Assembly (NCBI GenBank): GCA_949289065.1
Contig: CASEMA010000007.1
Coordinates: 14,967 to 78,966, forward strand
Direction: 5' to 3'
Source: an uncultured Eubacteriales bacterium
GTDB taxonomy: Bacteria > Bacillota > Clostridia > Lachnospirales > Lachnospiraceae
Length of the DNA: 64,000 nucleotides
A model generated the notes under the pieces. The model ran no database searches, was not told the origin of the DNA, and saw only the letters and a program-made list of their open reading frames with translations. The position numbers and the translations under genes are program-made. Below are positions 1 to 7,793 of the stretch, in pieces (positions within the stretch are counted from its first letter, which is position 1; every line of letters begins with the position of its first letter).

Positions 1-16
1 AAGGCGGTGAGATAAA

Positions 17-1114
17 ATGACATGGATAAGCCATTGGGGGAGCGATTACTACTCGGATGTCATGGAACGCTTTGGAACGGCTCAGTGTAATAACGCTAAT
101 CTGATTTATACATATCTTGCCACACATGGATTTACGTCCCGAAATGCGATCATGGCCATGATCGGGAATATGATGACCGAATCTTACTTAAATCCAGGTC
201 AGTGGCAGCATGGCTATAGCCCATACGACGGGAATCAAGATAACGGTATGGGCTTAGTCGGATGGACGCCGTATTGGCGTATCACTGACTGGCTGGAAGG
301 TCATGGTTACAACCTAGGAGATCCGGAATCCTATGGATACGGGATGCTGGATAAGTTGATCGAAGAATGCTTTGACGCAAAGGAAGTGACATGGATAGCT
401 ACATCGAGTTATCCTATTTCTTTTGCTGAGTTTGCCACGGACACCACCCATGATATTGAGTGGTTGGCGAATGCCTTTTTATATAACTATGAGCGTCCAG
501 CGACGACGCCGCAGCCAGCCAGAGCCGAACAGGCCAAGAAGTGGTCAGAAATCCTTCCGGAAACGCCGATGGGGACGTTTGTGCCAAGATTGTCAATCTA
601 TGAACCGACAGATATGAGTGATACTGGGAGCGAAGCATATAAATATTATTTTAGCGAAAACCTGTACTATCGTTATGGCTATGGTATAGCTAACTGCACA
701 GCCTATGCGGCCGGCCGGTGGTACGAGATCACTGGCCAATATCCTGATTTTACGGCTGGCACGGGAAATGCGAATGAATGGTATGCGGACGCTATAGCCA
801 AGGGGTACGAAGTCGGACAGACGCCACGCCTTGGGGCCATCGCCTGTTTTGGATACACGCCAGGCGGGCATGTATGCGTAGTAGAACAGATCAACGATGA
901 CGGAAGTTTTGTGGTATCAAATTCGGCATGGAATTCGGATGGGGAAATGAACATACCACCATCGGGGATATTTAACGGTTTTCCGTGCTTTTACCTGACG
1001 ACTTACACAGGGACGCCGGGGAACCAGTTTCAGGGATTTATTTATCCGCCGAATATATACACGCCACCGGCGCCACCTAAAAAAGTGGCGCTTGTCCGGT
1101 GGATTCCAGGATGA
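17..1114 (+). CDS. Virion-associated peptidoglycan hydrolase: phage tail lysozyme domain plus CHAP domain
   Basis: N-terminal NA..IY.YL...G....AI..MIGNMMTES.LNPG.WQ (tail-lysozyme type); C-terminal NCTAYAAGRW...GNANEWY...GGHVCVVE (CHAP Cys/His). Confidence 0.85.
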   Translation: MTWISHWGSDYYSDVMERFGTAQCNNANLIYTYLATHGFTSRNAIMAMIGNMMTESYLNPGQWQHGYSPYDGNQDNGMGLVGWTPYWRITDWLEGHGYNLGDPESYGYGMLDKLIEECFDAKEVTWIATSSYPISFAEFATDTTHDIEWLANAFLYNYERPATTPQPARAEQAKKWSEILPETPMGTFVPRLSIYEPTDMSDTGSEAYKYYFSENLYYRYGYGIANCTAYAAGRWYEITGQYPDFTAGTGNANEWYADAIAKGYEVGQTPRLGAIACFGYTPGGHVCVVEQINDDGSFVVSNSAWNSDGEMNIPPSGIFNGFPCFYLTTYTGTPGNQFQGFIYPPNIYTPPAPPKKVALVRWIPG

Positions 1115-1135
1115 GAAAGAAGGTGAGAGAAAAAA

Positions 1136-2068
1136 GTGGACAAACATATCGTAGAGGTATATGTATTCCGGGATGATTTAAAACAGACTATTTATTATAC
1201 GCAGGGCACGGACGCTCTGCCGATATTATTTTTGTTTAAAGATTATGAGATCCCAGAGGGCACAGCAGTAGATGTTTTTGTGGAGAAACCATCAAAAAAA
1301 GGCGTACAGTCCATGTCAGCCACATTGGATGTTGAAGAAAATTCAATCCTGGTAGACGTAGACAAGCAGATGGTCGCCGAAATAGGGACGGCTTACATGC
1401 AGCTCCGGCTGACGAAAGACGAAAAAAACCTTTTTACGTTTATCCAGCCAATCTGTGTGGAGCGCAGCGCGACACCGATTGACAGCGAGAACGGGATGCC
1501 GTTTTTGGATGAATGCATTGCCAGAGCCAATGAAGCCACGGAAGAAGCTAAAGTTGCCACGGAAGATGCCAGAGAAGTTGTCGCGGACATACAGCAGAAA
1601 GCGGAGAACGGAGAGTTTTCAGCCAGCATCACAGTCGGCGAAGTCATTAACGGCGAACCGGGGAGCGCAGCGTCGGTCAAAAACTCTGGCACCAAAAAAG
1701 ATGCTGTTTTTGATTTTGTTATTCCGACTGGTCCGCAGGGGCCAAGCGGTGTTATGGCTCCCTCTGCCGGAATGTTTAGCCTTTGGGTGGATCCGGCGAC
1801 AGGGAATCTCTGGGTGGATTATCCGGATGAAGCGGAAGCGCCAAATTTTCGGTATGACAGCGATACCGGAAATTTGTATTATGAGATAGAAAGGGAGGAT
1901 GGGATCATGGCATCATTACTCATTGGAAACGTGAGAAACCCGCTCATCAACAACGTGACTACAACGACGCCAGGTCAGGGAGCCCTGGATGCCGCAGTCG
2001 GAAAAGCATTGCAGGATGAAATTGAAACAATCAAAGAAACTTTAAAAAATGTATTATCAATACAATAA
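1136..2068 (+). CDS. BppU-like baseplate protein with short collagen-like GPQGPSG segment
   Basis: N-terminal YYTQG...ILF...V.VFVEKPSKK...G...MQLRLT pattern typical of upper-baseplate domains; located in tail module. Confidence 0.65.
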   Translation: MDKHIVEVYVFRDDLKQTIYYTQGTDALPILFLFKDYEIPEGTAVDVFVEKPSKKGVQSMSATLDVEENSILVDVDKQMVAEIGTAYMQLRLTKDEKNLFTFIQPICVERSATPIDSENGMPFLDECIARANEATEEAKVATEDAREVVADIQQKAENGEFSASITVGEVINGEPGSAASVKNSGTKKDAVFDFVIPTGPQGPSGVMAPSAGMFSLWVDPATGNLWVDYPDEAEAPNFRYDSDTGNLYYEIEREDGIMASLLIGNVRNPLINNVTTTTPGQGALDAAVGKALQDEIETIKETLKNVLSIQ

Positions 2069-2089
2069 TATTTCGAGGAGGAAATAAAC

Positions 2090-2974
2090 ATGTCAGTAAA
2101 CACAGTAAAATATACATTTCAGGGACAGACCTACGATTTGACGTATAACTCAGAAACGGGTAAATATGAGGGAACAATTCCGGCACCTGCAAAATCCAGT
2201 TATTCGCAGGCAGATCATAAATACGGCGGAACAGTTGTGGCCACAGACGATGCGGGGAATGAAACGACAGTAAGCGAGACCCACAGCACATTGGGAGAGA
2301 GTTTAAAAATCAGAGTCCTGGAAAAGGTGGCGCCGGTTATTACGATTACTTATCCAACAGCATCCGCGTTTATTACTAATGCCAATCCGGAAATCGCATT
2401 TAAGGTTACGGATGATGATTCTGGCGTGAATGCAGATACAATTAAACTTACTGTAGACGGTCAAGAGGTTGCGATTACAAAAACATCGGTCACCGGCGGA
2501 TACGAGTGCAAATATACTCCGGCTACGGCACTGTCCGACGGCGAACACACGATTGCAGTTAATGCATCGGATAATGATGGCAATGCCGCTGCGGCGAAGA
2601 GCGTGACATTTACCGTCGATACCGTTCCACCGACATTGTCTGTGACAAATCCGGCAGACGGTCTTGTAACAAACGAAGAAACACTGACAGTAACGGGTAC
2701 CACTAATGATGTCACCTCAAAACCGGTGACAGTGACCGTAAATGGACAGAGTACGACCGTCAATGCAGATGGTTCGTTCAGTAAGACAATTACGCTGACA
2801 TCTGGATCAAATGTTATTACAGTAGTAGCCACCGACAAGGCAGGTAAGAAGACCACAATAACCAGAAATGTCACACTGGATACGGGTGCGCCAGTGATTC
2901 AGGCGATCACCATTACTCCAAATCCGGTCGATGCCGGTCAGACATTTATCATCTCTGTAGAGGTGACGGACTAA
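2090..2974 (+). CDS. Phage structural protein with tandem Ig-like repeats
   Basis: Repeated D..AP.I.IT.P and V.ATD.AGN motifs, Thr/Val-rich beta strands; RBS GAGGAGG. Confidence 0.75.
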   Translation: MSVNTVKYTFQGQTYDLTYNSETGKYEGTIPAPAKSSYSQADHKYGGTVVATDDAGNETTVSETHSTLGESLKIRVLEKVAPVITITYPTASAFITNANPEIAFKVTDDDSGVNADTIKLTVDGQEVAITKTSVTGGYECKYTPATALSDGEHTIAVNASDNDGNAAAAKSVTFTVDTVPPTLSVTNPADGLVTNEETLTVTGTTNDVTSKPVTVTVNGQSTTVNADGSFSKTITLTSGSNVITVVATDKAGKKTTITRNVTLDTGAPVIQAITITPNPVDAGQTFIISVEVTD

Positions 2975-2978
2975 GTCT

Positions 2979-3254
2979 ATGGTTCGGAGAGTGTTTGGCA
3001 AAGCCAATGGGGCCAAAATTATATTTGAACATCAGGAAGGGGACTGGTGGCGCGTCACCGTCCCCTCAAACCTCCAAGGTGAATACATCGTGGATGTATA
3101 CGCCGAGGATGAGGCTGGCAATGTGGCCTATAAATGTAAAATGCTGTTTGCCATATGTGGTCACGAACTTCAGGCTTATGTTTTAAAAACGGGGTATCGT
3201 GCGGAAATGAAGGAAGGGGGATACAGCATTGAGTGTAGAATATGTGGGGGATAA
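2979..3254 (+). CDS. Small Ig-like phage protein
   Basis: GEYIVDVYAEDEAGN motif, same class as the repeats of the upstream protein. Confidence 0.6.
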   Translation: MVRRVFGKANGAKIIFEHQEGDWWRVTVPSNLQGEYIVDVYAEDEAGNVAYKCKMLFAICGHELQAYVLKTGYRAEMKEGGYSIECRICGG

Positions 3255-3519
3255 ATATGTTGACGCCGGTGAAAGAATCCATATTCGGTGCATCGTAAGA
3301 GCGAAATGTGGCCAGGACATCCCCTTTTCGATTCGGAGCGCCCGGTGGGAATTGTATAATCCAATGGGCGTGTTAGAGGCAGAAGGCGAATGCGAGATTA
3401 ACACCCACGAATTAGATGCGCTGGTCCAGCCGAAAGGCACTGGAAGATACAAGTTTAAATTTATTTATGAGGTGGCCGATGAAATCTGGATAGACCAGGT
3501 AAAATTAAGGGTGAATTGA
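3229..3519 (+). CDS. Hypothetical phage protein (TTG start; start uncertain)
   Basis: 96-aa ORF filling the gap in the tail operon; GGAAGGGGG 8 nt upstream of the TTG. Confidence 0.55.
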   Translation: MSVEYVGDKYVDAGERIHIRCIVRAKCGQDIPFSIRSARWELYNPMGVLEAEGECEINTHELDALVQPKGTGRYKFKFIYEVADEIWIDQVKLRVN

Positions 3520-3520
3520 A

Positions 3521-3685
3521 ATGAAAGCAAATATTATTATTGATGGCATACAGATAACCCCGAATCCGGTAGAGATCAAAAAAACATTTACAATATTGGT
3601 GGGAACTAAGGATGTGGCTTATGTCCTTGGCGAAGATGCCTATGCTTTGGCAGATATGGACGGGGCGTTGATCCGAACAGAATAG
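3521..3685 (+). CDS. 54-aa phage protein missing from the ORF track (MKANIIIDGIQITPNPVEIKKTFTILVGTKDVAYVLGEDAYALADMDGALIRTE)
   Basis: ATG 1 nt after the previous stop, TAG at 3683-3685; shares the ITPNPV....TF.I.V motif with the C-terminus of 2090-2974. Confidence 0.75.
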   Translation: MKANIIIDGIQITPNPVEIKKTFTILVGTKDVAYVLGEDAYALADMDGALIRTE

Positions 3686-3700
3686 AATGGAGGAATGGAT

Positions 3701-5080
3701 ATGGCAGAGACAACAACTACCGATGCAATTGAGACAAAAAAAGTTACAGACCTTGAAGAAAAAACGACACCGGAAGATGACGACCTTTTTATGGCCGGAG
3801 ACGCCGGAGAATCAAAATTAAAAAAAATAAAGTGGTCTAATCTGTTAGAAGCTGTTAAAGCAAAGATTGCAGAATGGGACTTTGAAACGTTGTCAACGGA
3901 GGATAAGACTGTCCCGGGGGCGTTGAACGAACTAAACAGTAACATAGGCGCATTAGGATCGTTGAAAACATCTATAAAGACGAGCATCGTTGGGGCTATC
4001 AATGCCCTCGCAACTATCGTCGACGGCAAGGCCAAGACTAATCACGCCTCAACAGCAAATACATATGGACTTGGCACAACGTCTAATTACGGGCATGTTA
4101 AGACGATTAACGGCCTTGGACAAACGGACCATGCCGACGGGACAGCCTTGTCAGCCTATCAGGGCTATGTGTTGGACAATGCAAAAGCTGCTACGGGAGC
4201 GGGAGAATTTGCGTCCTTAGCCGCTTTTATCAATTATGTGGGCCAAAGACCAAAACAAACATATATCGGCAAGTGGAAAGATACCGGCGGATGGATGCCA
4301 AGAGGATCAGCATGGTATCACGGGTTTTGCGTATTGCAAAATCCACCAGGGAGTTCTTCAGCTATTGATGGCATTGTAGTGTGTCAGTGTAATACAGACT
4401 TTTATTTTGGACGCATAAACGGCACAACGACACCAACTGCAACATGGCATCAGCTTGTAATGCCAAACAATAACGGCGATTTCGGGGAATTACCTTTTAT
4501 AAATGCCGGCATGATATCCGGAACCACGCCTCAATTATTACAATTATGGGCATCGGGTGAGGCTGACTTTGTATTGTGCCTCGGTGTGCGCAATGGCGCT
4601 TGGGGATTGAGTCCATTCAAGAACGGCTCGTTGCAGCTTGGCGCAGCAAATTATAAATGGGGCCAAGTGTATTCTAACGTAGCATCTATCAGTACATCTG
4701 ACAGAAACGAAAAACACGATATTCGCGATCTACCTGCGAATATAAAAGATTTTGTAATGGGATTAAGTCCTGTAGCCTACAAACTAAACGACGGAACTTC
4801 CGGGCGCTTACATTACGGATTAATTGCCCAAGATGTGGAATTATTAATGGAAAGCTGCGGAATGACTTCGGTGGATTTTGCTGGCTTTGTTAAGTCACCA
4901 AAAACCGAACCAGTATTCGATGAAGAGGGCAAAATCATCGAAGAAAAAAACGTTGAAGGTGAATATGTTTACGGCCTTCGTTACGATGAATTCATCGCGC
5001 CGCTGATTAAAATGGTTCAGATCCAGCAGAAGGAAATCGAGGAATTAAAAACACTGATAGAAAAGTCTACTGGAATGTAG
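3701..5080 (+). CDS. Tail fibre/spike with C-terminal intramolecular chaperone (peptidase S74-like)
   Basis: TSDRNEKHDI...LSPVAY...HYGLIAQDVE...LRYDEFIAPLIK.VQ.QQKEIEELK; ALNELNSN neck motif; GGAGG 7 nt before ATG 3701. Confidence 0.85.
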   Translation: MAETTTTDAIETKKVTDLEEKTTPEDDDLFMAGDAGESKLKKIKWSNLLEAVKAKIAEWDFETLSTEDKTVPGALNELNSNIGALGSLKTSIKTSIVGAINALATIVDGKAKTNHASTANTYGLGTTSNYGHVKTINGLGQTDHADGTALSAYQGYVLDNAKAATGAGEFASLAAFINYVGQRPKQTYIGKWKDTGGWMPRGSAWYHGFCVLQNPPGSSSAIDGIVVCQCNTDFYFGRINGTTTPTATWHQLVMPNNNGDFGELPFINAGMISGTTPQLLQLWASGEADFVLCLGVRNGAWGLSPFKNGSLQLGAANYKWGQVYSNVASISTSDRNEKHDIRDLPANIKDFVMGLSPVAYKLNDGTSGRLHYGLIAQDVELLMESCGMTSVDFAGFVKSPKTEPVFDEEGKIIEEKNVEGEYVYGLRYDEFIAPLIKMVQIQQKEIEELKTLIEKSTGM

Positions 5081-5092
5081 TCATAAGGAGAA

Positions 5093-5551
5093 ATGAGGGA
5101 AAAAATGAAAGTAATTGATACTTACAACATGATTGTTGGAGCAGCAGTGACCGTCATGATAGCCATATTTGGGGCCTACTGGTACATATTTGCAGCGTTT
5201 TTGATTTTTAATGTATTTGATTGGCTGACCGGATGGTATAAGTCCAGGAAACTCAAAAAAGAAAGCAGCGCTGTCGGTTTACAGGGAATTTTGAAGAAAC
5301 TGGGATACTGGGTTATAATTGCTGTGGCGTTTTTGGTTGCCAATGTATTTGTCCACATGGGAACAGATATTTTACACGTGGATTTAAGCTTTTTGATGAT
5401 GGTCGGATGGTTTACACTGGCCTGCCTGATGGTCAATGAGGCCCGGAGTATTTTAGAGAATCTGGTGGAGTGTGGATATGATGTGCCAAATGTCCTGATT
5501 AAGGGGTTGGCGGTAACTGATAAATTGATTAATAGCGATGAGGAGGAATAG
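5093..5551 (+). CDS. Phage holin (holin family 4-like)
   Basis: Several TM segments, DWLTG...SS.VG..GILKKL...NEARSILENL..CG..VP..L.K.L; directly before the endolysin. Confidence 0.88.
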   Translation: MREKMKVIDTYNMIVGAAVTVMIAIFGAYWYIFAAFLIFNVFDWLTGWYKSRKLKKESSAVGLQGILKKLGYWVIIAVAFLVANVFVHMGTDILHVDLSFLMMVGWFTLACLMVNEARSILENLVECGYDVPNVLIKGLAVTDKLINSDEEE

Positions 5552-5554
5552 AAT

Positions 5555-6403
5555 ATGGCAAAGATTTGGTTGAATGCCGGTCACGGCGGGAATGACCCAG
5601 GAGCATGTGCGAATGGAAGAAGCGAAGCAGTCCAGGTGGAAAAACTTACGAGAGCAGTTGGAGCGCTGCTTTCCGGTGCTGGACATACCGTTTGGTATAC
5701 AAGGGATGTATCGCCATATATGGATACCTATGTTCCACATGAAAATAATAAACCAGCGGACATCTTCGTGAGCTTCCACCAAAACGCCGGTGGCGGCCGT
5801 GGGTATGAGTCATTCGTTAGCGGCAATGATAACTGTGCGCTGGCTTGTGCAAAGGCGCTGGCCGAGGATATGGCCAAGATTTGGTCGTTACGTGGCAGCA
5901 CATACGGCGCCGGTGTTAAAAAGCATACGGAAGCCGCTGTCGGCTCACTGTATGTTGTAAGTGGTACAGTGTCGCCGGCGTTTTTAGGCGAGTTTGGTTT
6001 TATTGACAGCGCAGCCGACATGAAGATCTTTGATGAAAAATTTGATCATATTGCTCGATGTTGCGCAAACCGGATTTCGCTGGCCGTGGGCGGAAAGTCC
6101 ATCAGCAACAACACGGAGACAAAGCAGGAAACAACGACAAAGACGGAGGTAAATAAAGTGGATTGGAAATCAAAAGTAACAGATCTGTACATCACGCAGC
6201 TGGGCCGCGAACCGGATCCGGCAGGGCTGGCCTTCTGGGAGAATATCCTCAACAAAGGCACATTGTCTTGGGACGAGGTTGCCAACGGCATTATTGACAG
6301 CGACGAGGGGCGCAGGCGATTCATCCGAGAGCTGTATGTATTTTTGTTGAAACGTGAACCGGATGAAAAAGGAATGAATGACTGGGATGGATGCCATCGT
6401 TAA
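5555..6403 (+). CDS. Endolysin: Zn-dependent N-acetylmuramoyl-L-alanine amidase (Amidase_3) with DUF4214-like C-terminal repeats; last repeat frameshifted (continues 6387-6470)
   Basis: LNAGHGGNDPGA...E, FVSFHQNA, LGEFGFID; repeats LY...LGREPDPAGLAFW and LY..LLKREPDEKGM.DW. Confidence 0.88.
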   Translation: MAKIWLNAGHGGNDPGACANGRSEAVQVEKLTRAVGALLSGAGHTVWYTRDVSPYMDTYVPHENNKPADIFVSFHQNAGGGRGYESFVSGNDNCALACAKALAEDMAKIWSLRGSTYGAGVKKHTEAAVGSLYVVSGTVSPAFLGEFGFIDSAADMKIFDEKFDHIARCCANRISLAVGGKSISNNTETKQETTTKTEVNKVDWKSKVTDLYITQLGREPDPAGLAFWENILNKGTLSWDEVANGIIDSDEGRRRFIRELYVFLLKREPDEKGMNDWDGCHR

Positions 6404-6486
6404 AGGCATGACCCGGGCAGAAATCTATAAGGCGTTTGTTAGTAGTGATGAATTTAAAAGCAAAAAGTAAATCCAACATGTTTTCG

Positions 6487-6521
6487 AAGGCTCTCGGAAT
6501 TCCGGGGGCCTTATTTTTTTT
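6487..6521 (+). terminator. Intrinsic terminator of the late/lysis operon
   Basis: AAGGCTCTCGGA-AT-TCCGGGGGCCTT followed by ATTTTTTTT. Confidence 0.8.
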
Positions 6522-6528
6522 GTTTGCC

Positions 6529-6569
6529 TTGATTTTGGTAACCAATTATAGTATGATATAGGTAACCAA
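6529..6569 (+). promoter_or_regulatory. SigA-type promoter of the AbrB-like gene with two operator copies
   Basis: TTGATT(6529)-17-TATGAT(6552); TTGGTAACCAA at 6535-6545 in the spacer and TAGGTAACCAA at 6559-6569. Confidence 0.8.
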
Positions 6570-6586
6570 TAAAAGGAGGCAGGCAG

Positions 6587-6769
6587 ATGGTAGAGAGAAA
6601 TATAATTATTGCAAAGGCCGGAGGAACAGCCGGAAAGAATTCGGTGAATTATAAGATAAGTTTACCAGCAGAAATGGTAAAAGAGTTGGGGGTAACGCCA
6701 GAAGATAAAAGCGTCACCGTGTCTTTTGAAAATGGTAAAATAATTATAGAGAAGAAGAAAAATGCTTGA
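6587..6769 (+). CDS. AbrB/MazE/SpoVT-family DNA-binding protein (60 aa)
   Basis: YKISLPAEMVKELGV..ED..V.V.FENGKIIIEK swapped-hairpin signature; RBS AGGAGG. Confidence 0.8.
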   Translation: MVERNIIIAKAGGTAGKNSVNYKISLPAEMVKELGVTPEDKSVTVSFENGKIIIEKKKNA

Positions 6770-6794
6770 CATTGGTAACCAATAATGATATAAT
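6766..6794 (+). promoter_or_regulatory. Consensus SigA promoter with the same 11-bp operator
   Basis: TTGACA(6766)-17-TATAAT(6789); TTGGTAACCAA at 6772-6782. Confidence 0.85.
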
Positions 6795-6855
6795 ATAATT
6801 GTCAGAAGGGGAAACCTAATGACAATAACCGGGCAAGCGGAGGAAGGAGAACGAC

Positions 6856-6993
6856 ATGGAGGATATGGAAAAAGGCACCATAAAGGAAATGATTGAATGG
6901 ATGACTGAAAAAGGACATACAGAAGAAGAAATCATGGAATGTATTCGGCGAATGGTCGGAGCAAAGCCGAAAGAAAAAAATAAGGCTGAATAA
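6856..6993 (+). CDS. 45-aa small protein missing from the ORF track (MEDMEKGTIKEMIEWMTEKGHTEEEIMECIRRMVGAKPKEKNKAE)
   Basis: Own consensus promoter, AGGAG RBS 5-6 nt upstream, TAA at 6991-6993. Confidence 0.75.
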   Translation: MEDMEKGTIKEMIEWMTEKGHTEEEIMECIRRMVGAKPKEKNKAE

Positions 6994-7041
6994 ATCAGCC
7001 AGAGCATGACAAGGAGGGCGGGCTTGCCACCGCTCCCCGTC
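6974..7041 (-). ncRNA. Candidate ~68-nt cis-antisense RNA overlapping the 3' end of the 45-aa ORF
   Basis: Minus-strand extended -10 TGTTATAAT (7056-7048), GC-rich 5' hairpin (7041-7008), terminator GGCTGA/TCAGCC (7000-6984) plus UUAUUUUUUU. Confidence 0.5.
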
Positions 7042-7078
7042 AAAAGAATTATAACACAATTAATATATAAATAGGAAG

Positions 7079-7107
7079 AAAAAAAGCTCATACAGGGGGC
7101 TTTTTTT
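7079..7107. terminator. Bidirectional hairpin terminator just inside the prophage end
   Basis: AAAAAAAGC...GCTTTTTTT; on the minus strand it lies 14 nt past the stop of truncated cotJC. Confidence 0.65.
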
Positions 7108-7121
7108 AATGGAAATTATTG

Positions 7122-7232
7122 TCAGTCCTTGCAATACGGGCCTCCGTATTGGCTCATGATTACTTGGGCAATCTGAGCGTTTGGCTGTGTGATATTTACC
7201 GGATACTGCAATCGTTTCTCATAGTTCCACAT
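7122..7232 (-). pseudogene. cotJC: 5' fragment of cotJC (spore-coat Mn-catalase family), interrupted by the prophage
   Basis: MWNYEKRLQYPVNITQPNAQIAQVIMSQYGGP followed by YCKD*; strong RBS GGAGG; third gene after cotJA and cotJB. Intact CotJC continues ...YGG.DGEL. Confidence 0.9.
7132..7151. other. Candidate prophage attachment site (hybrid att; serine-integrase-like)
   Basis: Perfect 8-bp inverted repeat CAATACGG-GCCT-CCGTATTG centred where CotJC similarity ends. Confidence 0.75.
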
Positions 7233-7507
7233 GAGCAGTTACCTCCTTCCCATGGCCATTTTTGCTGAATCCACTCCCAGGAATTACTGGCAGTGTCGTT
7301 GGCGGTATCAATGGTTAAAGGACCGAAACGGCGGGCGTATTCCTTCAGGGCCGCGTTTCGCATTTCGCTGTGTTCGAGAAAATAGGACAGCGCCTCCGGG
7401 TTCTTTGGGTGGGAATCAAGAAACAGGGTAATATCATTTACGGCAAAGCTTACTTTATTAATATAATCCAATAATTGGGATTGGGAAAGTTGACATAGAT
7501 TTCTCAT
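7196..7507 (-). CDS. cotJB: Spore coat protein CotJB
   Basis: LLDYINKVSFAVNDITLFLDSHP...Y..RFGPLT...W.W....WPWE; ATG at 7507 overlaps the cotJA stop (ATGA). Confidence 0.9.
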   Translation of the reverse strand: MRNLCQLSQSQLLDYINKVSFAVNDITLFLDSHPKNPEALSYFLEHSEMRNAALKEYARRFGPLTIDTANDTASNSWEWIQQKWPWEGGNCSCGTMRNDCSIR

Positions 7508-7728
7508 CGCACGCACCTCTTTCCGCAGAATGGTTTATGAAGCTCCGGAAAAATCGTACCGACTTCCAGACTGTGGTTCAGATCAAATGTCGTCTGGAAG
7601 GTTTGCATTGGCACATAGGCCATGGCGATGGGAAAGGTGCAGATATTTTCACAGGCCGGTGCTGCCGGAGCCGGCATTGGCCGGTTGATTGGGTGGCAGC
7701 ACGAAGCCATATTTTGTCGGTAATTCAT
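7504..7728 (-). CDS. cotJA: Spore coat-associated protein CotJA
   Basis: PIAMAYVPMQ...F.L..SLEVGTIFPELHKPF signature. Confidence 0.9.
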   Translation of the reverse strand: MNYRQNMASCCHPINRPMPAPAAPACENICTFPIAMAYVPMQTFQTTFDLNHSLEVGTIFPELHKPFCGKRCVR

Positions 7729-7763
7729 ATAAGCTCCTTTCGGAAAAATTTTTATTTTACTAT

Positions 7764-7793
7764 TAATGTATGAAAACCGAAAAAGAATGTGAG
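7764..7793 (-). promoter_or_regulatory. Mother-cell (SigK/SigE-type) promoter of cotJABC
   Basis: Minus strand AC(7790-7789)-16 nt-CATACATTA(7772-7764); fits SigK AC-N16-CATAnnnTA and the SigE -10 CATACAnT. Confidence 0.7.

Follow-up and report, generated by a model that had tools for sequence, protein, structure and literature searches.

A temperate phage in cotJC, a spore-coat gene of a gut Lachnospiraceae bacterium: possible excision in the mother cell through a large serine recombinase and a small partner protein

The window analysed here, a stretch of 64,000 nucleotides (G000:C7:14967-78966), belongs to the genome of an uncultured bacterium of the family Lachnospiraceae (G000), a 2.7-Mb draft in 72 contigs with an estimated contamination of 1.08%. 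Close to its left end lies a cotJ operon for spore-coat proteins, the third gene of which, cotJC, is split by a tailed, temperate phage that looks complete and measures at least 36.4 kb. The missing 3' half of cotJC is found on another contig, at the other end of the phage and next to a gene for a large serine recombinase (LSR; the gene is referred to below as int), and the two halves can be joined in frame. Furthermore, the phage carries a gene for a protein of 47 amino acids (aa) which is linked to this recombinase across its clade and is preceded by a promoter-like motif of the mother-cell type. With slightly more confidence than doubt, we propose that the phage excises in the sporulating mother cell by means of int and this 47-aa partner, and that its excision would rebuild cotJC. 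Positions without a contig name are those of the window.

The cotJ operon and the reconstruction of cotJC

The cotJ genes are located on the minus strand of the window. A promoter of the mother-cell (σE/σK) type, AC-N16-CATACATTA, at 7764-7790 (36 nt 5' of the cotJA start) is followed by cotJA (7504-7728; Pfam CotJA, 2e-16), cotJB (7196-7516; Pfam CotJB, 7e-28) and a truncated cotJC (7122-7232), just as had been claimed in a reading of this DNA made from the sequence only. The -10 nonamer of this promoter is the same as that preceding the sigK gene of the host. Expression of cotJ in the mother cell is assumed on the basis of what is known for Bacillus subtilis. The cotJC frame begins with an ATG at 7232 and is translated into MWNYEKRLQYPVNITQPNAQIAQVIMSQYGGP and then YCKD, with the stop codon at 7122-7124. 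Codons 1-32 are genuine, residues 1-32 being matched to positions 1-32 of the Mn_catalase profile, and the YCKD tail comes out of phage DNA; thus, the description in the sequence-only reading of a CotJC-like frame that leaves the host gene after QYGGP is accurate. The palindrome with a GCCT centre, at which that reading had placed the break, could be located at 7132-7151 (CAATACGG-GCCT-CCGTATTG).

A search of the whole genome with the Mn_catalase profile revealed the 3' half of cotJC at G000:C10:66820-67359, where it starts with QYGGPDGEMG, and found neither an intact cotJC nor a second cotJC-like gene in G000. Read in the cotJC sense, a recombinase open reading frame (ORF) of 497 aa ends there with ...KMEVCYYLL and its stop codon; 15 nt further on comes CAATACGGAGGCCC, from which the frame continues as QYGGPDGEMGASMRYL... 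to the normal C-terminus. A 3' half of cotJC at the far end of the element, with a large serine recombinase gene beside it, had been predicted in the sequence-only reading, and both are present, the stop codon of the recombinase gene lying 11 nt from the 3' half and 15 nt from the core described below. The predicted in-frame join is also obtained: the joined flanks encode a CotJC of 207 aa (Mn_catalase PF05067, 1.3e-48), both halves being free of stops and frameshifts, and this protein is 92-97% identical to the products of intact cotJC genes in nine genomes of the same genus and 87% identical to that of a tenth.

The two junctions are identical over exactly 14 bp, and this identity does not extend on either side. 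The copy at the junction between the 5' part of cotJC and the phage (7138-7151; CAATACGGAGGCCC in the cotJC sense) is the same as C10:67346-67359. This core (GGGCCTCCGTATTG) has exactly two copies in the 2.7-Mb genome, one per junction, and the break is therefore not a matter of chance. An identical 14-bp core is present as an empty attB site in the intact cotJC of two genomes of the same genus. The crossover is predicted to take place inside the core, which covers codons Q28-Y29-G30-G31-P32. The attP site rebuilt from both junctions, TTGCAATACGG-AGGC-CCGTATTGCAA, is a near-perfect palindrome (19 of 25 positions symmetric), in which perfect arms of 11 bp flank AGGC. The dyad centre falls on GG, and this GG is that of the Gly31 codon, where the central dinucleotide had been expected.

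The number of contigs in the draft and its estimated contamination might suggest that the cotJC pieces were mis-assembled or come from different strains of a mixed sample. This is extremely improbable, as both junctions, with the same phage arms, lie on a single contig in the genome of a sister species (G008), the same break is seen beside related integrases in dozens of independent genomes, and G000 has no intact copy of cotJC.

The large serine recombinase and its relatives

The 497-aa product of int contains the Pfam domains Resolvase (2.5e-25), Recombinase (2.2e-28) and Zn_ribbon_recom (1.3e-05), which identify it as a large serine recombinase. It is full length and has kept all invariant residues, including the YIRVST motif, which is invariant in the alignment; the best match among GenBank phages has 38% identity. 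For a survey of the clade, the 80 best int relatives in species-representative genomes were collected (41-52% identity, mostly Lachnospiraceae). More than half of them (45 of 80) are located not more than 1 kb from a cotJC fragment that is broken at the QYGGP codons. In 20 of these 45 loci int reads into the 3' half, as in the phage described here; the remaining 25 (among L050-L109) have the inverted arrangement, with int converging on the 5' fragment, which suggests the existence of sub-lineages in which the central dinucleotide of attP is reversed relative to int. Other int relatives adjoin other genes, among them a gene for a penicillin-binding protein (PBP) with spoVD as its best model and a gene with SpoIID/LytB and peptidoglycan-binding domains.

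The closest relatives of int (49-52% identity; L031-L043, L049, L070, L080) do not target cotJC. Their carriers include [Ruminococcus] torques ATCC 27756 and Faecalimonas umbilicata DSM 103426. In one group of them, the gene with SpoIID/LytB and peptidoglycan-binding domains is broken at ...CPNWM|TQWGS..., and another group is found next to a fragment of the spoVD-like PBP gene, which scores under the cut-off of the spoVD model. Many of these recombinase loci also carry the partner gene and the promoter motif described in the following sections.

A small partner gene linked to int

Besides int, one small ORF is common to six elements compared at the QYGGP site of cotJC. In this phage it is located at C10:74369-74512 within the early operon, starts with GTG and encodes the 47-aa protein MTIVNVIKIGDKDVKLSDLTDAEKKDIAVRLTIQAMASVGYKVAGGR. 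A search with this single sequence in 401 genomes of the order was too insensitive, giving only two extra hits, and was replaced by searches with hidden Markov models (HMM). The iterated HMM found the family in 41 of the 80 int loci and, if only those with at least 6 kb of sequence upstream are considered, in 35 of 49. All 43 HMM hits lie upstream of int and on the opposite strand, 16 of them being directly divergent from it at a distance of 46-253 nt from the int start. Among 61 related genomes (hit threshold E ≤ 1e-5), the partner gene is present in 8 of the 12 that possess int and in none of the 49 that do not (p = 1.7e-7).

In more distant members, the partner gene and int share a strand, the partner gene immediately preceding int (G040; G048:C21:1052-2751 and C14:45328-46961). 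The pair in G040 (L021, G040:C3, 4714-6521) follows the 5' fragment of cotJC in the same orientation, so that the cotJ promoter itself could drive both genes.

The sister species G008 carries at the same cotJC site a non-phage element of 4 kb, which is contained in a single contig (G008:C69, locus L018, 3174-7198). The only parts that it has in common with the phage are the att arms, int and the partner ORF; int with 160 nt upstream is 92.6% identical between the two, and the partner ORF with ~60 nt upstream 78%. Judging from this gene content, the G008 element would be a minimal recombination unit with cargo. Its int is 97% identical to that of the phage, and its cargo consists of a DinD-like gene (NCBIfam, 2.7e-128) and an ORF of 295 aa without a match in NCBIfam, the only library scanned. 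Elements of 4 kb are also inserted at the same cotJC codons in G036 and G040. Both int and the partner ORF are under purifying selection, the ratios of nonsynonymous to synonymous substitution rates (dN/dS) being 0.064 and 0.13, respectively. The split cotJC halves of G000 and G008 have a dN/dS of 0.008, which we rejected as a sign of continued function, because the element is far younger than the split of the species (dS of 0.19 for int vs 0.89 for cotJC).

By its linkage to int, the 47-aa protein is a candidate recombination directionality factor (RDF). The linkage, the fixed position and the retention of the gene fit the pattern of a recombination unit of the type attL-int-rdf-attR, as defined in PMC6957869.

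In a second prophage of G000, on contig C36 (14.3 kb), the same int-upstream region precedes the gene for a tyrosine integrase. It is a mosaic with the phage in cotJC, to which it is 91-99% identical in patches corresponding to C10:68886-69028, 70171-70388, 74504-74659 and 81559-81665. The homology ends 8 nt short of the 47-aa ORF's stop codon, and the slot is occupied in the C36 prophage by an ORF of 79 aa with a helix-turn-helix (HTH) domain, possibly an Xis protein. The comparison of the two prophages suggests that recombination units have been exchanged naturally.

The promoter-like motif upstream of the partner gene

In B. subtilis, the consensus for σK is AC-N16/17-CATAnnnTA, and the -10 consensus for σE is CATACAnT. 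In order to evaluate the region in front of the partner genes, the 100 nt upstream of 47 non-redundant partner genes were compared with those of 1549 control genes from the same loci. The σE -10 consensus (CATACA.T) is present upstream of 10 of the 47 partner genes (21%) and of 10 of the 1549 controls (0.6%; p = 3e-11), and CATA occurs at -45 to -15 in 70% of the partner genes vs 18% of the controls. A composite motif, [GT]ACA[AT]-N7-11-CATA, which was picked after seeing the data, is found in 53% vs 1.2%. Anchored on CATA, the sequences upstream of the partner genes give the consensus AACAnGTACAAnCnGTnnnnCATAnAnT, that is, AC-N17-CATA (AC-N17-CATAnAnT).

In the phage in cotJC, the motif upstream of the 47-aa ORF is AAAGTTGGACAATCACAGAATCATACATTATACAG, with the -10 box CATACATTA 30 nt before the GTG start. 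The mother-cell genes of the host have similar -10 boxes: AC-N17-CATACATTA for sigK, AC-N16-CATACATTA for cotJA, CATAGATT for spoIIID and CATATATC for spoIVA. CATACA[ACT]T is found 12-70 nt before a ribosome-binding site and an ORF at 11 sites in the genome, among them those of sigK, cotJA and the 47-aa ORF, and the nonamer CATACATTA is present in these three only. The partner gene thus appears to possess a promoter of the mother-cell type, which would depend on σE or σK. In addition, the phage has a perfect match to the SpoIIID box in this region (TTGGACAATC), which is not claimed as a site.

Proposed excision in the mother cell

We infer RDF activity of the partner, σE/σK dependence of its promoter and excision during sporulation in the following order of events. 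The temperate phage would have integrated into cotJC through its LSR, inside the 14-bp core. In the integrated state, the cotJ promoter can yield only CotJA, CotJB and a CotJC stub of 36 residues. An ordinary phage promoter would drive int, because the same upstream region serves the tyrosine integrase in the C36 prophage. Synthesis of the partner would occur on two occasions: upon prophage induction, as its gene lies inside the SOS-inducible early operon under an S24-type repressor, and in the sporulating mother cell, where the gene's own promoter just upstream would be used. LSR and partner would then recombine attL with attR, which would remove the phage from the mother-cell chromosome and rejoin cotJC exactly. 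The whole gene would be transcribed from the cotJ promoter for coat assembly, and the prophage would stay integrated in the forespore genome.

Several observations weigh against this scheme. There is no direct overlap between C10 and C7, and it is by the logic of the att sites that the arms on these contigs are inferred to form one continuous prophage. The 47-aa protein has no match in Pfam, PHROGs or GenBank phages (tblastn), and it is by linkage that it is assigned as an RDF. As for its promoter, the -35 position in this phage is AG and not AC. Genome-wide, AC-N16/17-CATA[ACG]A.T before genes is not enriched (11 occurrences vs 10 for the reversed control); sigK and cotJA are among the 11 hits of this relaxed scan, but the motif is too degenerate for discovery, and the promoter call therefore relies on the similarity to the consensus and on the four host examples. 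The SpoIIID box (WWRRACARNY) is not significantly more frequent upstream of partner genes than of controls (11% vs 4.9%, p = 0.09). Furthermore, loss of CotJC-like proteins has mild phenotypes in B. subtilis and Clostridioides difficile (PMC11222575, PMC12122855), and selection for restoration of the gene may consequently be weak. Finally, an exact search for the rebuilt attP gave no match in IMG/VR and none in metagenome contigs, a weak negative, as close relatives may be masked there.

The latter result would also be expected if the prophage were locked or defective, never excised and left cotJC permanently inactive in this strain; the assembly in pieces and the second, mosaic prophage, which could have recombined with the one in cotJC, would be in line with that. 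We nevertheless regard this as improbable, since int has its full length and all invariant residues and evolves under purifying selection, the att sites at the two ends are intact and their core is perfect, the cotJC halves are without stops or frameshifts, and all structural and lysis genes that were checked are open.

Alternatively, the insertion could represent ordinary disruptive lysogeny, in which the conserved QYGGP codons merely offer a landing site without vegetative cost, excision occurs only in the SOS response, and the lysogens sporulate without CotJC. An S24-type CI repressor together with a complete lytic gene set, and a partner gene placed inside the early operon, are compatible with such a life style, as are the mild phenotypes of cotJC-type mutants (PMC11222575, PMC12122855) and the absence of the excised form from the public contigs searched (IMG/VR, metagenome). 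Besides, unrelated recombinases hit cotJC at four or more sites in many relatives, as they would a tolerated target. What ordinary lysogeny does not readily explain is that elements with no more than 20-35% identity between their proteins have kept the σE/K-type motif directly in front of the partner gene, that the 4-kb non-phage elements retain an intact int, the partner gene and the motif, and that sister recombinases target the sporulation-associated spoVD-like PBP and the gene with the SpoIID/LytB domain; moreover, G000 lacks a second copy of cotJC. Taken together, we consider ordinary lysogeny a possible but rather unlikely explanation.

Distribution and significance of split cotJC genes

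The proposed excision in the mother cell would concern a gene that is frequently interrupted. A survey of related genomes showed cotJC to be split in ~20 of the 47 that have the gene. The breaks recur at four positions of the protein (residues ~26-35, ~59-69, ~131-138 and ~167-178), and all four are used within the genus of the window's own host, over 5 of its 15 species. Relatives with a split cotJC are G005, G010, G013, G017, G026, G028, G033, G036, G040, G041, G044, G047, G051 and G056; in G036, G040 and G056, the gene apparently has two or three breaks at the same time.

A broader and more tentative proposal, which we hold with more doubt than confidence, is that LSR, 47-aa partner and mother-cell-type promoter form one portable unit that has diversified among gut Clostridia and reached several sporulation genes. 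With unrelated recombinases acting at three further fixed positions of cotJC, multiple programmed excisions in the mother cell would then be routine in many sporulating gut commensals, and the carriage of phages would be coupled to spore transmission. The targets of this unit may include the QYGGP codons of cotJC (in both orientations), the spoVD-like PBP and the wall hydrolase with a SpoIID/LytB domain, and its carriers may range from full phages to elements of 4 kb.

If excision takes place as proposed, a common group of gut spore-formers uses it in coat assembly in the way Bacillus does with SPbeta and skin, and the phage travels in the spore of a host that can still assemble a complete coat. 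This would bear on the persistence of temperate phages in spore-transmitted gut commensals and on their spread with them. The integrase, the candidate RDF and the att sites with a defined 14-bp core also represent an orthogonal set of the kind used as genome-engineering tools, and the candidate RDF family is open to direct testing.

Comparison with known elements in sporulation genes

A close parallel is SPbeta in spsM of B. subtilis, excised by SprA and SprB (PMC4191935, PMC5499854). In both cases, an active-looking temperate phage with a large serine recombinase at one end splits a spore-envelope gene expressed in the mother cell, and excision rebuilds the gene in frame (here, it would do so, as judged from an in-silico join). 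The tiny partner gene, for 58 aa in SPbeta and 47 aa here, is located in both phages in an SOS-inducible operon. The sprB gene also has its own mother-cell promoter, in which the -10 box is perfect and the -35 box imperfect (PMC4191935), and the putative promoter of the 47-aa gene would be of the same kind. The two differ in the target, which is here cotJC, in the host, a gut Lachnospiraceae bacterium, in size (~36 kb vs 134 kb) and in that the evidence in the present case is that of the sequence.

In the skinCd element in sigK of C. difficile (CD1231/CD1234; PMC5025042), the host is likewise a clostridium, the LSR gene is constitutive, as it appears to be here, and the small RDF gene, CD1234, has a mother-cell promoter, driven by σE and SpoIIID. 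It is an RDF under such a promoter that turns SPbeta and skinCd into sporulation switches, and the scheme proposed here follows their logic (PMC4191935, PMC5025042). However, skinCd is a defective element of 14.6 kb in a regulatory gene without which sporulation fails, whereas the phage described here looks complete and lies in a structural coat gene. SprB and CD1234 were, like the 47-aa protein, without similarity to known proteins when they were found (PMC4191935, PMC5025042). Portable units that survive without phage genes are exemplified by gin in gerE of B. cereus ATCC 10987 (PMC5595907) and by skin/Skr of B. subtilis (PMC6957869); the 4-kb elements of G008, G036 and G040 resemble these, whereas the window holds the phage form rather than the minimal one.

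The sequence-only reading did not recall cotJC as a characterised target in this lineage. A literature search indeed found no element in cotJC described with att sites, RDF or promoter, and no case in Lachnospiraceae; cotJC as such, however, has been mentioned before as an insertion target. A passage of bioRxiv 10.1101/2021.11.22.469490 that cites Abe 2013 names it as a gene into which phages or transposons insert, and bioRxiv 10.1101/2022.02.25.481979 refers to a skin-like element in the cotJC of Laceyella sacchari. These one-line mentions concern the same target and a recombinase-bearing element, in Bacilli. The phage phi027 of C. difficile adjoins a CotJC-like gene, which is not described as split. 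What is new here is the family of partner genes and the promoter motif; the locus alone is an expected variation on a known theme.

Organization of the prophage

The minimum length of the prophage is 36,423 bp, and its GC content is 0.42, compared with 0.45-0.46 for the host flanks. The left arm (C10:67360-81665) contains, in this order, int, an Abi_2 gene, a CI-like repressor gene (HTH and S24 peptidase domains), the rightward early operon, and replication and methylase genes; the last of these are a replication initiator gene, a gene resembling that of single-stranded DNA-binding protein (SSB) and three methyltransferase-like genes. A megablast search of GenBank phages with the left arm gave no match. 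The right arm (C7:1-22103) comprises genes for the large terminase subunit (TerL), portal, capsid and tail, followed by those for a putative holin, an Amidase_3 endolysin and two accessory proteins. All modules, i.e. packaging, head, tail, lysis, lysogeny and replication, are thus represented, with a contig break between the early and the late regions. This break is explained by a repeat common to the second prophage, as the terminal 107 nt of C10 recur at the beginning of C36, in the early region of that prophage.

The part of the right arm within the window (1-7137, plus strand; continuing leftwards to C7:1) carries tail, tail-fibre and lysis genes and the two small accessory genes. The putative holin, a membrane protein of 152 aa (5093-5551, plus strand), is so designated on account of its hydrophobicity and its position directly before the endolysin gene; homologues are found in the same place in elements of G023 and G032. 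The endolysin gene (5555-6403, plus strand) encodes an N-acetylmuramoyl-L-alanine amidase with a DUF4214 domain (Pfam Amidase_3, 9e-24; DUF4214, 2e-15). The two accessory genes come next on the same strand. The first (6587-6769), directed at the junction, encodes a protein of 60 aa with an AbrB/MazE fold (Pfam MazE_antitoxin, 2e-05; phrog_2329, 6e-21), and the second (6856-6993) one of 45 aa, which matches no Pfam or PHROGs family and is preceded by a consensus σA promoter, TTGACA-17-TATAAT, at 6766-6794.

The phage genes end at a hairpin with a T-run (7079-7107, plus strand). It had been taken for a terminator placed by the phage right after the break in cotJC. A stable hairpin does exist on the phage strand (-10.5 kcal/mol, z -2.5); in the cotJ sense it is weak (-5.7 kcal/mol, z -1.7), and it was not called by a terminator scan. 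It would chiefly be the phage's own, ending the rightward phage genes, and a weak terminator for cotJ read-through.

Between 6524 and 6993, two tandem promoters of the σA type, each with the palindrome TTGGTAACCAA after the -35 box, precede the 60-aa and the 45-aa genes at the end of the phage; both face the cotJC junction, and cotJ is on the other strand. That the small genes at the attR end (6587-6993) might be driven by the cotJ promoter was ruled out by this opposite orientation.

The Abi_2 gene between int and the repressor gene (C10:69034-70113; L004, 7035-8114; Pfam, 1.2e-43) is abortive-infection-like and probably represents a defence gene expressed in the lysogen. The three consecutive genes at the end of the early region (C10:78951-81537) contain the DNA-methyltransferase motifs DPPW, YPGAKN and FSGIGG; these labels, like that of the SSB-like gene, come from sequence motifs read by eye.

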